Made by a program: the position numbers and the translations under genes
The notes under the pieces: generated by a model
Database searches by the model: none
The model's input: the letters and a program-made list of their open reading frames with translations, nothing else
What the model was told of the DNA's origin: nothing
In this document: piece by piece, positions 36,256-48,754 of the stretch
How the letters are laid out: the number at the start of each line of letters is the position of its first letter
Position numbering within the stretch: the stretch's first letter is position 1
Assembly: GCA_019057815.1 (NCBI GenBank)
Contig: JAHLWR010000023.1
Coordinates: 1-54,527, forward strand
Direction of reading: 5' to 3'
DNA from: Candidatus Heimdallarchaeota archaeon
Lineage (GTDB): Archaea; Asgardarchaeota; Heimdallarchaeia; Heimdallarchaeales; Heimdallarchaeaceae
DNA: 54,527 nucleotides

Positions 36256-36444
36256 GATGCATAGCGAATCTCAGCTACTAGAGAATTGAAATATAATCCA
36301 TGAAAGCATCGCTGAAATAGGGATTTTCAGGTTGCATACAGAATCTCACTAACTAGAGAATTGAAATGTATTATTAAGTTTAGCAGTATTATCTATCCAA
36401 TAACCTGGTTGCATATTGAATCTCAGCTACTAGAGAATTGAAAA
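36256..36444 (+). CRISPR. Leaderless degenerate mini-array: 3 repeats (36256, 36331, 36408), 2 spacers (38 and 40 nt)
   Basis: 37-nt repeats most like array 2, each different, all keeping TCTC/GAGA stem and ATTGAAA. Confidence 0.9.
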
Positions 36445-36660
36445 GCTCATCGAGGATATGTTCTTTAAAAGAAATACATGATTTAAATGATAATGCAAAT
36501 AGCAAATCATTTAAAAAAAATCTGGTTGTCCCTTTCAGAGAAATTAAGAAATCTGTATATGATGATTTCTCAACTTTATAATGGAAAAATGATGATTTTA
36601 ATTTAATTTTGACTTAATTCGATTTTTGTAAGAAAGAAAAAAAGAAGGAATAGTTGCTAC

Positions 36661-38004
36661 TTAATCTATTTTTCGTCTTTTTTTAGAGAATAATTTTATG
36701 AGTAGCAAAGGAACTAATACTATTAGTAGAGTAAATGTGAAATATATTTGAGTTTCATCTGTAGAACATTCAACAGGTTCATCAAGAGGGTAAAGATCGA
36801 TTGAACTTGCATAACCAGCAATAGAATAATTACCTGTACCTGACCAATCTGACCAATAATTACCTTCAAGTGTTTCAGTATCATACCAAAAGTTGTCAGA
36901 ACAATAATCAAAAGCTTGGGAAGTTCCTCCTAGATTATTGTCTACAAAGGTATTATGGTGAATAAGATTACTATCAGAACTAAGAAGTAAGTATACTCCA
37001 TAGACTTCATTTTCTTGTAGAAGATTGTAAGTAACGACACAAAAATCAGAAGACCAAAGATAGATGCCTCCCCAGTAGTTATTGCTACACGTGTTGTTTA
37101 CAACCGTCGCACTACCAGAAGAGGAAAGCAAGATGCCAAAGTTGCTGTTATTGCTACATGTGTTGTTAATAATAATTGAATATGTACAGGAGTACTGAAA
37201 TAGACCAGTTGTAGCGCTATTTAATATTTGATCACGTACTGTCACACTATTACAATTAACTAATATTAATTGACCATAGACAGGCTCAGAAATAATAGTG
37301 GAGTCAAGGTTAGTGCAAAAACCTAGTTTTTTCCCATTCACCCAATTATTCTCAACAGCATACGATAGGTAAGCATTAATGGTACCGTCGTTTATATGTA
37401 AACCACAATTAGTAAAAGAGTTGTTGACAACAGTAGAACTACCAGAATATTGAAGATAGATTCCTCTGTAGTAATTGTTGCTACATGTGTTGTTTGCAAC
37501 CGTAGAACTACCGGAAGACAAAAGCATGATGCCATCGCTATTATTGCTGCATGTGTTGTTTGCAACCGTGGAACTACCAGAAGAGGAAAGCGAGATACCT
37601 CCGTAGTTATTATTGCATGTGTTGTTGATTACAGTTGCTGTACCATCAGCTACATTCTTGATATGAATGCCATAATGGCTTGTGTCAACATAGCAGTTAC
37701 GAACAATGAAATATTTCGTTGTATCATCGATAAAAATACCATCTATACTCGTTGTTGTGATCTTGTAACCATCAATAAGATAAGGGTCTTCCGCTGTTCC
37801 TGTTCCAGGAAAAATCTCAAGTTCACTATCAGAAGTAATGGATATAGGATCATGGGGGGTCAAAGAGACGTAAGAGGGTGGGTTGGAAGAGATAGTTGTA
37901 GAACTTACACTCAGACTAGAGAATAAACTTAGTCCAAAAATTAAAATTGAAACAAATAAAACTCTTCTAATTGATACTCTAGATAGTTTTGATCGATTTT
38001 CCAT
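36661..38004 (-). CDS. Beta-helix (NosD-like) surface protein, TM-anchored
   Basis: Paralogue architecture as above. Confidence 0.88.
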   Translation of the reverse strand: MENRSKLSRVSIRRVLFVSILIFGLSLFSSLSVSSTTISSNPPSYVSLTPHDPISITSDSELEIFPGTGTAEDPYLIDGYKITTTSIDGIFIDDTTKYFIVRNCYVDTSHYGIHIKNVADGTATVINNTCNNNYGGISLSSSGSSTVANNTCSNNSDGIMLLSSGSSTVANNTCSNNYYRGIYLQYSGSSTVVNNSFTNCGLHINDGTINAYLSYAVENNWVNGKKLGFCTNLDSTIISEPVYGQLILVNCNSVTVRDQILNSATTGLFQYSCTYSIIINNTCSNNSNFGILLSSSGSATVVNNTCSNNYWGGIYLWSSDFCVVTYNLLQENEVYGVYLLLSSDSNLIHHNTFVDNNLGGTSQAFDYCSDNFWYDTETLEGNYWSDWSGTGNYSIAGYASSIDLYPLDEPVECSTDETQIYFTFTLLIVLVPLLLIKLFSKKRRKID

Positions 38005-38149
38005 AGTTAACCTACAAAGATGTCAATTTAATATACTAGCATGTTTTGACACTTATATATCTTATGAAGTGAAAAGTAATTTTATTTCTCTCAATTTAAT
38101 AAATAAAGTCGAAGTTTCAAAACTACAAAATTGTGAAAAGAAAGCAGAG

Positions 38150-38186
38150 GTTGAATGCTGAATCTAAGTTACTAGAGAATTGAAAT
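38150..38186 (+). repeat. Solitary CRISPR repeat 1
   Basis: GTTGAATGCTGAATCTAAGTTACTAGAGAATTGAAAT. Confidence 0.85.
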
Positions 38187-46236: not shown

Positions 46237-46378
46237 AAAAATAACCCCTTTTTCACTAATAGTATTTACTTAACTATTTATTTAAGCATTGTAGACGATT
46301 CTTCAGCAATAGGAAAAATCATGAAAATTAAAAATATAGTAAGATTAATTCGGTAAAAGGTTAAGAAAAAAAAGTGTG

Positions 46379-48562
46379 TTAATTCTTTCTTTTCTTTGGA
46401 ATTATAGTTAGTATAGAAGCCACAGACACTAATCCTAAAATAGCGAACCATGGAGCGAAAGGAATAGAGAATGTTTGTTCTTCAGAATCTTTATCGGAGT
46501 TGTCGGGCTCATCGCTAGTAGTAGTGGATGTAGATGTTTCAATTACTTCAGAAGCATTAACAATTATTTCATAATATTGTCCATTATTGTCCTCTGTAGC
46601 TTCGTTATTATTAATGGAGTTGTCTATGACAAATATATAATATTCAATAAAGTCGTTAACTGCAAAAGAACCAAGAGTTACACTATAAATAGAGTTTTCA
46701 ATAAACTTCATACCGATTGATTGCCATACTCCTCCATTGACCCTATAATAGAGATTAACGGATTGTACACCTGAAGCGTCAGTAACAGTAGCATTAATGT
46801 TGATACTATCTAGTTCAGTAGGAGAGGAGGGAGAATGAACAACATTTGTAATTGAAGGAGGAATAAAATCTAAAACTGCTATCGAACTAAGTGGATAGAG
46901 ATCAACTGTGCTAGCTGAACCGTCAATAGCATAACTACCTGTTCCAGACCAGTCTGACCAGTAGTTACCTTCATTTGCATTTGCGTCATACCAAGTATTA
47001 TTTGTTCCATCATCATATCCTTGGGAAGTTTCTCCTAAATTATTACCCACAAAAGCGTTATGATGAATATTATTACCATCAGAATGCTCATGTAATCTGA
47101 TTCCATATTCCCCATTTTCTTTTAAAAGATTTAAAGAAATAACACATGAATCAGAATTAATTAACCAGATACCAATATCATTATTATTGTTACATGTGTT
47201 ATTAGTAAGAGCCACTTCAGAAGAATCCACTAGATAGATACCATATTTATTATTATTACAAGAGTTATTGATTATAGTATTATTAGGAGAATAACTCAAC
47301 CAGATACCATAGAAGTTGTTATTACAAATGTTATCTGTAATAGTGCTTTTTTCACACAAAAGAAGATATAAACCTGCTGTAGTATTGGATAATTCTTGGT
47401 TACAAACAACAGTTTCTGTACAATTAATTAAAATCAATTGACCATAGATAGGTTCTGTAAAAGTGATTTTATTGAGATTTATGTAAAAACCTAATTGTTT
47501 ATCATTCACCAAATTGTCCTCAATGATATAGGAGAGATAATCTTCAACACTCGACTCAGTAACATACAATCCACAATTATAGAAAGTGTTGTGAGTAAGT
47601 GTAGAACCAGAAGAACCAAAAAAATAGATGCCAACGATCTCATTTGTATTAGTGTTATTGATAACAGTAGAAGAACCAGAATAGTAAATTAATATGCCAA
47701 TGTAGTTGTTACTGCACATGTTATTTTCAACCGTAGAACTAACAGAAGAGTCAAGAAAGATGCCACAGTAGGTGTTATTACTGAACGTGTTGTTAATAAT
47801 ATTTGAATATCTACAGGAGTAGAGAAATAGACCAGTTGTAGCGCTATTTAATATTTGATCACGTACTGTAACATTAGTACAATTGATGAATATTAATTGC
47901 CCATAAACTGGTTCAGCAATTATCGTAGAGTCAAGGTTAGTGTAAAAACCTAGTTTTTTCCCATTCACCCAATTATTTTCGACAGTATCTGATAGGTATG
48001 CATCAATGGTATGTTCGCTTATATATAAACCACAATTAGTAAAAGTGTTATTTGTCACCGTAGAACTCCCAGAATAGTAAAGACAGATGCCGTAGCTGTT
48101 GTTGCTACACGTGTTGTTGGCAACAGTAGAATAACTAGAAAACCAAAGCCAGATGCCTCTGTAGTTGTTGTTGCAAGTGTTGTTAATGACAGTTGCTGTA
48201 CCATCAGCTACATCATCGATATAAATGCCATACTCTACTGCGTCAACATAGCAGTTACGAACAATGAAATATTTCGTTGTATCAGTGATAGAAATACCAC
48301 ATTCATTCGATGTTGTGATATTGTAACCATCAATGATATAAGGATCCTCAACAGTTCCTGAACCGGGAAAAACTTCGAAATCGCTATCAGAAGTAATAGA
48401 TATAGGATTATGCGGGGTAAGTAAGGAGTAAGATTGTTGGTTGTAAGAATCAGTTGTAGAATTTGCTCTCATAGTAGAGAACGTAGTTATTCCAATAATT
48501 AAAATTGAAACACATAAAATACTTTTTATTGAAACTTTAGATTGTTTTGAGTGCTTTTGCAT
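46379..48562 (-). CDS. Beta-helix + Ig-like surface protein
   Basis: Two NxVNxKxLG inserts; HSPSSPTELD Ig module; IPFAPWFAILG anchor. Confidence 0.88.
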   Translation of the reverse strand: MQKHSKQSKVSIKSILCVSILIIGITTFSTMRANSTTDSYNQQSYSLLTPHNPISITSDSDFEVFPGSGTVEDPYIIDGYNITTSNECGISITDTTKYFIVRNCYVDAVEYGIYIDDVADGTATVINNTCNNNYRGIWLWFSSYSTVANNTCSNNSYGICLYYSGSSTVTNNTFTNCGLYISEHTIDAYLSDTVENNWVNGKKLGFYTNLDSTIIAEPVYGQLIFINCTNVTVRDQILNSATTGLFLYSCRYSNIINNTFSNNTYCGIFLDSSVSSTVENNMCSNNYIGILIYYSGSSTVINNTNTNEIVGIYFFGSSGSTLTHNTFYNCGLYVTESSVEDYLSYIIEDNLVNDKQLGFYINLNKITFTEPIYGQLILINCTETVVCNQELSNTTAGLYLLLCEKSTITDNICNNNFYGIWLSYSPNNTIINNSCNNNKYGIYLVDSSEVALTNNTCNNNNDIGIWLINSDSCVISLNLLKENGEYGIRLHEHSDGNNIHHNAFVGNNLGETSQGYDDGTNNTWYDANANEGNYWSDWSGTGSYAIDGSASTVDLYPLSSIAVLDFIPPSITNVVHSPSSPTELDSININATVTDASGVQSVNLYYRVNGGVWQSIGMKFIENSIYSVTLGSFAVNDFIEYYIFVIDNSINNNEATEDNNGQYYEIIVNASEVIETSTSTTTSDEPDNSDKDSEEQTFSIPFAPWFAILGLVSVASILTIIPKKRKN

Positions 48563-48715
48563 AATTTAACCTACAAAGATGATAAATTCATGTATCAATT
48601 TACTTTAGGAAATTTAACAGTTTAGTTGGAGGTAAGAGACAATTCCTTTTATCTCAATTTAATGAAATAAAGTCGAAGTTTCAAAAAGACAAAATTGTAT
48701 TAAAAGAAAACAGAG

Positions 48716-48754
48716 GTTGCATACTGAATCTAAGCTATACTAGAGTATTGAAAT
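48716..48754 (+). repeat. Solitary CRISPR repeat 3 (39 nt)
   Basis: GTTGCATACTGAATCTAAGCTATACTAGAGTATTGAAAT. Confidence 0.82.

Follow-up and report, generated by a model that had tools for sequence, protein, structure and literature searches.

A candidate crRNA-like cassette of solitary CRISPR repeat, guide and target upstream of beta-helix surface-protein genes in a Heimdallarchaeal genome

CreA, the CRISPR RNA (crRNA)-like regulator of the haloarchaeal type I-B CreTA system, relies on a seed at positions 1–5 and 7–11, leaves positions 6 and 12 free, acts as a repressor and can regulate its own promoter (PMC8501985), and two divergent promoters can be regulated by it at once (10.1101/2023.03.10.532045). 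In the type I-E system of Salmonella, a CreR target ~140 bp upstream of the gene still mediates repression (10.1101/2023.03.03.530964, 10.1101/2023.03.10.532045, 10.1101/2024.12.27.630466). The sole example of crRNA-like control of an envelope gene in the literature that we surveyed is Cas9 with its small CRISPR-associated RNA (scaRNA), and a search for Asgard beta-helix surface genes associated with CRISPR returned no paper, though coverage was incomplete. Here we examine contig JAHLWR010000023.1 of Candidatus Heimdallarchaeota archaeon (54,527 nt, hereafter the window), in which three solitary CRISPR repeats stand upstream of genes for beta-helix surface proteins. Each repeat belongs to a ~130-nt module that also holds a guide-like segment and, in its flank, a target-like site, and we read this module, with a probability of roughly 0.55, as a type I-B crRNA-like regulatory cassette that is functional in at least some copies and partly decaying.

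The likeness to CreA (PMC8501985, 10.1101/2023.03.10.532045) extends to the degenerate repeat, the conserved 8-nt handle, the seed at positions 1–5 and 7–11 with 6 and 12 free, a target that stands upstream of a nearby gene and is flanked by a candidate protospacer-adjacent motif (PAM), an optional degenerate second repeat, the placement of the target near divergent promoters and possible self-regulation. In contrast to CreA, no toxin RNA is evident here, the neighbour is a surface protein, the candidate PAM lies outside the predicted B recognition element (BRE), pairing runs to position 19, and the module occurs in several copies, dispersed away from the cas locus. Identity with CreTA was rejected because the gene next to every copy encodes a NosD/beta-helix surface protein; no search was aimed at a hidden small toxic RNA. 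With the CreR and crRNA-like RNA (crlRNA) mini-arrays and single repeat units (10.1101/2023.03.03.530964, 10.1101/2023.03.10.532045, 10.1101/2024.12.27.630466), the module shares a standalone repeat, a degraded distal repeat (in unit 1) and a partial promoter match, whereas the targets described for those RNAs are cas promoters, toxin–antitoxin genes, and other cargo or defence genes located within or close to cas loci, and in the present case a ~130-nt module unites guide and target and has been copied along with a host gene family. In scaRNA–Cas9 control of a Francisella novicida lipoprotein (PMC12231574), partial complementarity likewise steers a CRISPR effector to repress a host envelope gene; that system is type II-B, needs a trans-activating crRNA (tracrRNA), occupies a single locus and has its target in the 5′ untranslated region, whereas the one proposed here would be type I-B, archaeal and multi-copy, with a target upstream of the promoter. 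RNA anti-CRISPRs (Racrs; PMC10651486) are also solitary repeats that could load into Cas proteins, but they are decoys on viruses and mobile elements; the present units are chromosomal, linked to host genes, syntenic in two genomes and provided with a matching target, and the repeat was not found in viral contigs, so identity with Racr was rejected as well. As far as sequence can tell, the module appears to have the features of CreA/CreR crRNA-like regulators except for a proven PAM.

The mini-array and solo repeats described in the initial annotation of this region are real, and all lie on the strand of the three main CRISPR arrays of the window. The solo repeats are as follows:

38150–38186, + strand: solo repeat of unit 1 (psiR1), handle intact
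43241–43277, + strand: solo repeat of unit 2, with a rearranged 7-bp stem ending at the handle
48716–48754, + strand: solo repeat of unit 3, 39 nt long with a 2-nt insertion

They equal the closest array repeat at 31–35 of 37 positions, while the best chance matches genome-wide carry at least 11 mismatches, and they differ from one another by 14–24%. The blocks between the repeats, given earlier as 1.7, 5.1 and 5.4 kb, measure 1705, 5054 and 5438 nt, and the divergent beta-helix start codons (Pfam NosD/Beta_helix), placed ~145–155 nt away, lie at 146, 149 and 154 nt; the common ~65-nt flank before each solo and the motif after it are likewise both present. Two further statements hold in part. 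The exact 8-nt handle, claimed for every repeat, is found in the three solos, whereas the third repeat of the mini-array ends in A; among copies outside the window, those on C44 and C214 carry one handle change each and five other copies have lost the handle. As for the short stem said to be still possible, unit 2 has the rearranged 7-bp stem, and every one of the three window solos has its canonical 4-bp stem damaged or displaced. An Rfam search gave no match, and a bacterial-type scan found no terminator; a sigma-70 promoter scan is inapplicable to archaea.

The 19 nt that follow the solo repeat match a site on the same strand 75–79 nt upstream, within the flank of the same module. The match begins exactly at guide position 1, and a TCG trinucleotide precedes the target. 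The elements of the three units are:

38089–38108, + strand: conserved block 5′ of the candidate PAM, unit 1, not significantly repeat-like
38109–38111, + strand: candidate PAM (TCG), unit 1
38112–38130, + strand: target (protospacer-like) site, unit 1, the first 19 nt of a 38-nt stretch ending at the repeat
38187–38205, + strand: guide-like segment, unit 1
38206–38241, + strand: degenerate distal repeat (psiR2), unit 1, P = 0.0016
43200–43221, + strand: candidate PAM (TCG) and target, unit 2
43278–43296, + strand: guide-like segment, unit 2
48673–48694, + strand: candidate PAM (TCG) and target, unit 3, intact
48755–48773, + strand: guide-like segment of unit 3, its seed disrupted at positions 4 and 8

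Cascade leaves guide positions 6, 12 and 18 unpaired. These three are mismatched in unit 1, and the 16 pairing positions comprise 14 Watson-Crick pairs and two wobbles (G-T or U-G); among 7.5 million genome positions, the unit's own flank is the only site with the full score and a TCN PAM. The unit 2 guide has a perfect seed (1–5, 7–11) to five of the six targets of the genome. In unit 3 the match is not above chance, and its guide has probably decayed. Against shuffled guides, with wobbles counted, the match gave P = 0.0007 for 38150, 0.017 for 43241, 0.003 for C44 and 0.005 for C214, and was not significant for 48716; seed complementarity to a site in the promoter region with a mismatch at every sixth base accordingly characterizes the first four units (with wobbles) and not the last. 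Over all within-genome guide–target pairs, bases differ in 83% of cases at positions 6, 12 and 18 and in 23% elsewhere, with other phases reaching at most 37%, and the probability that the 4–7 differences of a pair cover all of 6, 12 and 18 is 0.004–0.036. Guides match the targets of other units as well as their own; between the C44 guide and the C1 target, for example, there are 15 matching positions and one wobble. Guides could therefore act in trans. Pairing ends at position 19–20, with no PAM-distal pairing, whereas normal spacers are 36–42 nt long. A search of post-repeat sequences for seed and PAM matches, proposed earlier as a check, located a target-like site with a PAM-like triplet in the module's own flank; the cas promoters held no target for the solo guides. 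The triplet 5′ of the target is TCG in 7 of 10 copies and TCT and TTG in two, with TAG solely in a copy that is also missing the handle and a seed base. TCG has been reported as a type I-B PAM in Clostridium tyrobutyricum, with TTN/TCA for related systems (PMC10328091).

We measured constraint as differences from the consensus in the five handle-intact copies. Relative to four-fold sites (0.157), the flank is conserved (0.059, p = 0.002), with 0/50 differences in the target seed, and the handle stands at 0.05 (p = 0.07); the proximal promoter (0.20–0.24) and the sequence beyond the guide (0.29–0.45) are more variable. The target side is constrained and the guide side not demonstrably so, a pattern that fits redundant guides with obligatory targets and would also be expected if a protein bound the flank or if gene conversion had acted.

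The module is present at three of the five beta-helix genes of the 36256–48754 stretch, whose genes and promoters are:

36661–38004, − strand: beta-helix (NosD) surface-protein gene, 447 aa, type B promoter
38052–38066, − strand: candidate TATA box and BRE of the 36661–38004 gene, assigned by eye from the archaeal consensus
39398–41020, − strand: beta-helix paralog of the module-bearing subfamily without the module, homology ending just past the promoter
41212–43092, − strand: beta-helix surface-protein gene with a PEF-CTERM-like tail, type A promoter, ATG at 43092
43134–43156, no strand: candidate two-way BRE–TATA–BRE promoter with a palindromic TATA, assigned by eye
43381–46236, − strand: beta-helix/TSP3 surface-protein gene, unrelated promoter, no module
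46379–48562, − strand: beta-helix surface-protein gene, type A promoter

The 447-aa protein has an N-terminal signal or anchor and a C-terminal membrane segment; its single-sequence structure model was of low confidence (predicted local distance difference test score, pLDDT, 52.7) and was not used. Beta-helix genes form a large family in this genome, in which 16 paralogs have one common signal peptide and one of two related promoters. Six of these 16 carry the flank, three in the window and one each on C44, C1 and C30, far from the cas locus; four of these six copies have both repeat and handle, the C1 repeat is cut inside the handle, and C30 has no repeat. The sister genome G001 (Candidatus Heimdallarchaeota 8H_bin2, the sole same-genus relative and a fragmented bin) adds four copies: one is intact, one has a deleted handle, and two are orthologous to the forms on C1 and C30. 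The flank always stands beside a beta-helix gene in the copies found and was not found in 59 other relatives, leaving two genomes that carry the module; a metagenome scan for it gave only three chance matches in unrelated DNA, and the related arrays of G007, G002 and G024 had no such module in the regions examined. In a tree of the 5′ gene ends, the module occurs on both sides of the single well-supported deep split, and would thus be either ancestral to the subfamily or spread by conversion. Since the flank is tied to beta-helix genes and lies on scattered contigs, and given this tree, the unit of duplication is gene, promoter and ~130-nt module together. Clustering beside the cas locus captures only some of this distribution.

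The region had been viewed as an array whose spacers are gene cassettes, which these observations contradict: there is no leader similarity, the solos are 14–24% divergent, units stand singly on other contigs, the copied unit of gene, promoter and module occurs on four contigs, and the junctions fall off the repeat borders. The related proposal, in which the repeats serve as sites where adhesin cassettes integrate or recombine, is largely refuted, and we regard it as very improbable, although two observations speak for it. In G001 the 10.6-kb block separating units 1 and 3 is absent, and the change from unit-1-like to unit-3-like sequence comes just after the guide; this is a single junction in a fragmented bin and should not be over-read. 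At the C44 site, neighbouring DNA is ~93–95% identical between the genomes and gene plus module only ~80%, so gene and module were replaced there, and the junction lies at the distal end of the module. Paralog homology nevertheless ends at six staggered points (two of them past the BRE, the others within the pre-PAM block, past the target, within the handle and past the guide), none of them at a repeat border, which makes a repeat-specific integration site unlikely; nor are there empty sites or gene-free modules, and 10 of the 16 paralogs are module-free. What survives of the proposal is that the module takes part in recombination, as the distal end of homology between paralogs that are mosaics, and the junctions fit ordinary homologous recombination across the unit together with truncation rather than site-specific integration.

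A stronger competitor, which we still consider doubtful, is that the module is a passive passenger. An old array containing a duplicated spacer would have left a remnant upstream of one beta-helix gene, and this remnant would have been copied along with the gene; common descent would then explain the likeness of guide and target, and recent gene conversion would make the flank look conserved. This option, also raised in the initial annotation, describes how the module spread and agrees with the nested losses among the mosaic paralogs, with the decayed copies on C1, on C30 and in the sister genome, and with a repeat body and guide that evolve near the synonymous rate; moreover, the 75–79 nt from target to guide equal the array period, one repeat–spacer unit as a duplicated spacer would give, and spacer duplications occur in the main arrays. 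It would however require a decayed repeat upstream of the target, and that place is not repeat-like (P = 0.04–0.46 for a 24-nt part, 0.13–0.97 for 37 nt) even though it is 95% conserved among copies and psiR1 is still 84–95% array-like, and neutral drift predicts neither the mismatches at 6, 12 and 18, nor wobble-compatible changes elsewhere, nor a PAM-like triplet. Conservation of the flank above that of the repeat, also outside the 19-nt target, and its survival without a repeat in C30 and its ortholog could instead mark an ordinary transcription-factor site for the surface genes (a weak dyad, TTTCA-N14-TGAAA) with the adjoining repeat incidental. We think this improbable as the whole explanation: the AT-rich dyad has only 5 bp and is disrupted in units 48716 and C1, no regulon of such sites exists elsewhere, the flank was rejected as a cas operator because its sequence is different, and the in-register guide match would be left unexplained. 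Such a site and a crRNA-like cassette could nonetheless coexist.

Several observations weigh against the regulatory cassette that we favour. The guide seed (0.12) and repeat body (0.10–0.12) are not significantly below four-fold sites, and the module copies are related and recombining, so that the guide–target tests are non-independent. Four of the five handle-intact copies have a damaged canonical Cas6 stem, 5 of 10 copies have lost the handle or had it deleted, and unit 3 has a broken seed. The target lies outside the predicted BRE and TATA box, and its distance from the guide is the one noted above for a duplicated spacer. TCG is a candidate PAM, not an established one for the host system: class-wide spacer searches for this repeat family gave three usable imperfect protospacers, in virus-like contigs binned with relatives, whose 5′ triplets (CCA, TTA, CTT) are compatible with a pyrimidine-rich PAM and prove nothing more. 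Of the Cascade-linked regulatory unit listed first among the initial options, the seed target with its PAM-like triplet in the module's own flank thus speaks in favour, and a guide side that is not demonstrably conserved speaks against.

Under the regulatory reading, the solo repeat would be psiR1 of a crRNA-like RNA gene sited with its own target upstream of one beta-helix subfamily. A + strand transcript would run through the module, perhaps from the palindromic TATA of type A promoters, Cas6 would cut it at the 8-nt handle, and the RNA would load into type I-B Cascade, which may then bind the matching TCG-flanked site 75–79 nt upstream without activating Cas3. The target lies ~110 nt before the surface-gene start, with the PAM 35–40 nt beyond the surface-gene BRE, and since no pairing extends past position 19, blocking rather than cutting would be expected of Cascade. 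The RNA would limit its own synthesis, and the divergent surface gene may be altered, most likely repressed; this is the least certain step, with the sign of the effect drawn from precedent. If guides act in trans, targets would persist while redundant guides decay. As to origin, the layout runs from PAM through a spacer-length 38 nt, the repeat and a shortened spacer to a degenerate repeat, the last undetectable in all units except unit 1, and we infer that this order would arise from a self-derived spacer after its duplication and later recombination with its own protospacer; a simple duplication within an array fits less well, as the upstream-repeat place is not repeat-like. Attempts to recognize the upstream flank as a decayed first repeat or CRISPR leader, the flank or guide as repeat 5′ halves, and a C30 segment as a decayed repeat gave nothing significant. 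More tentatively, the ~130-nt guide-and-target unit could be a portable CRISPR-controlled promoter cassette copied with a hypervariable surface-protein family, such that the cell surface tracks free Cascade (e.g. during infection or anti-CRISPR attack) and guides at one locus control targets at others. If the regulatory reading is true, it would extend crRNA-like regulation to a dispersed surface-gene family and type I-B Cascade in Heimdallarchaeia, the Asgard group closest to eukaryotes, and show a route from a repeat–spacer unit to a gene-family regulator. It also makes an exact and cheap prediction (RNA 5′ end, PAM and target coordinates) that can be tested in vitro with no need for a culture of the organism.

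The window corresponds to contig C18 in a genome of 3.74 Mb with 33% GC. It holds three main arrays built on a 37-nt repeat, present in 20, 32 and 32 copies, that share a leader, together with a type I-B system comprising cas3, cas5b, cas7b, a split large subunit, cas6, cas1, cas2 and cas4:

14491–20866, − strand: type I-B effector genes, namely cas3, cas5b, cas7b, a small open reading frame (ORF) resembling the cas8b C terminus or Cas11, and the large subunit
25318–29248, + strand: cas6, a Zn-ribbon ORF, cas1, cas2 and cas4
36256–36444, + strand: leaderless 3-repeat mini-array with two full-length spacers (38 and 40 nt), separate from the solo module

The cognate effector and Cas6 genes are therefore present, with Cas5b and Cas7b above cut-off, Cas6 identified by Pfam, and Cas3; the large subunit (516 aa) has no family match and was assigned by position. 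The mini-array (repeat starts at 36256, 36331 and 36408, all three degenerate) has no solo-module flank and no counterpart at the matching place in G001, and a target search with its spacers, cas promoters included, found none; it is a feature distinct from the solo modules. All three leaders (12575–12673, 22574–22672, 29247–29346) contain a TATA box flanked by an 11-bp inverted repeat. Array 1 (12674–14147, compared with loci L034 and L037 of G001) shares its upstream DNA with one G001 array but its downstream DNA with a different one, and the type III-A csm module that G001 and G007 carry in this locus is missing from the window, which together suggest a csm deletion through recombination between arrays. 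Array 3 ends in a truncated repeat (31775–31793), followed at 32337–32722 by an orphan beta-helix gene 3′ end that is 88% identical to 36494–36873.

Directly after unit 1, a frameshifted gene (38301–38860, + strand) encodes two similar helix-turn-helix-like halves and has no Pfam match. The beta-helix paralogs at 80952 of C44 in the host genome (G000) and at 9824 of the window are frameshifted near their 5′ ends, and the G001 ortholog of the C30 gene (L079, contig C105) has lost the whole beta-helix in frame, leaving ~140 aa of signal peptide, cap and anchor. An IS605-family tnpB (49412–50638) lies between a 127-aa ORF and a nucleotidyltransferase gene and is missing from G001. Among relatives, a two-repeat degenerate mini-array upstream of a cas-locus gene (L091 ~1638–1751, G002 contig C492) has a CreR-like layout, with no local target found, and a solitary repeat of the same family (L217, G027 contig C38 ~20930–20970) stands upstream of a small ORF and a nucleotidyltransferase-like ORF, a possible toxin–antitoxin pair, with no clear target.

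Viral contigs and GenBank phages contained neither the repeat nor protospacers, and two apparent protospacers in G004 are actually spacers of another array. Two virus-like contigs binned with Heimdall relatives (L140, G014 contig C67; L147, G016 contig C32) are matched by spacers of this repeat family, and L140 carries a cluster that by eye resembles type IV (csf-like) CRISPR effector genes. The same two spacers occur in two different CRISPR systems of sister species (L134–L135 of G004 and L087 of G007), and their starts, within 1 nt of each other, suggest a common target and a similar PAM.

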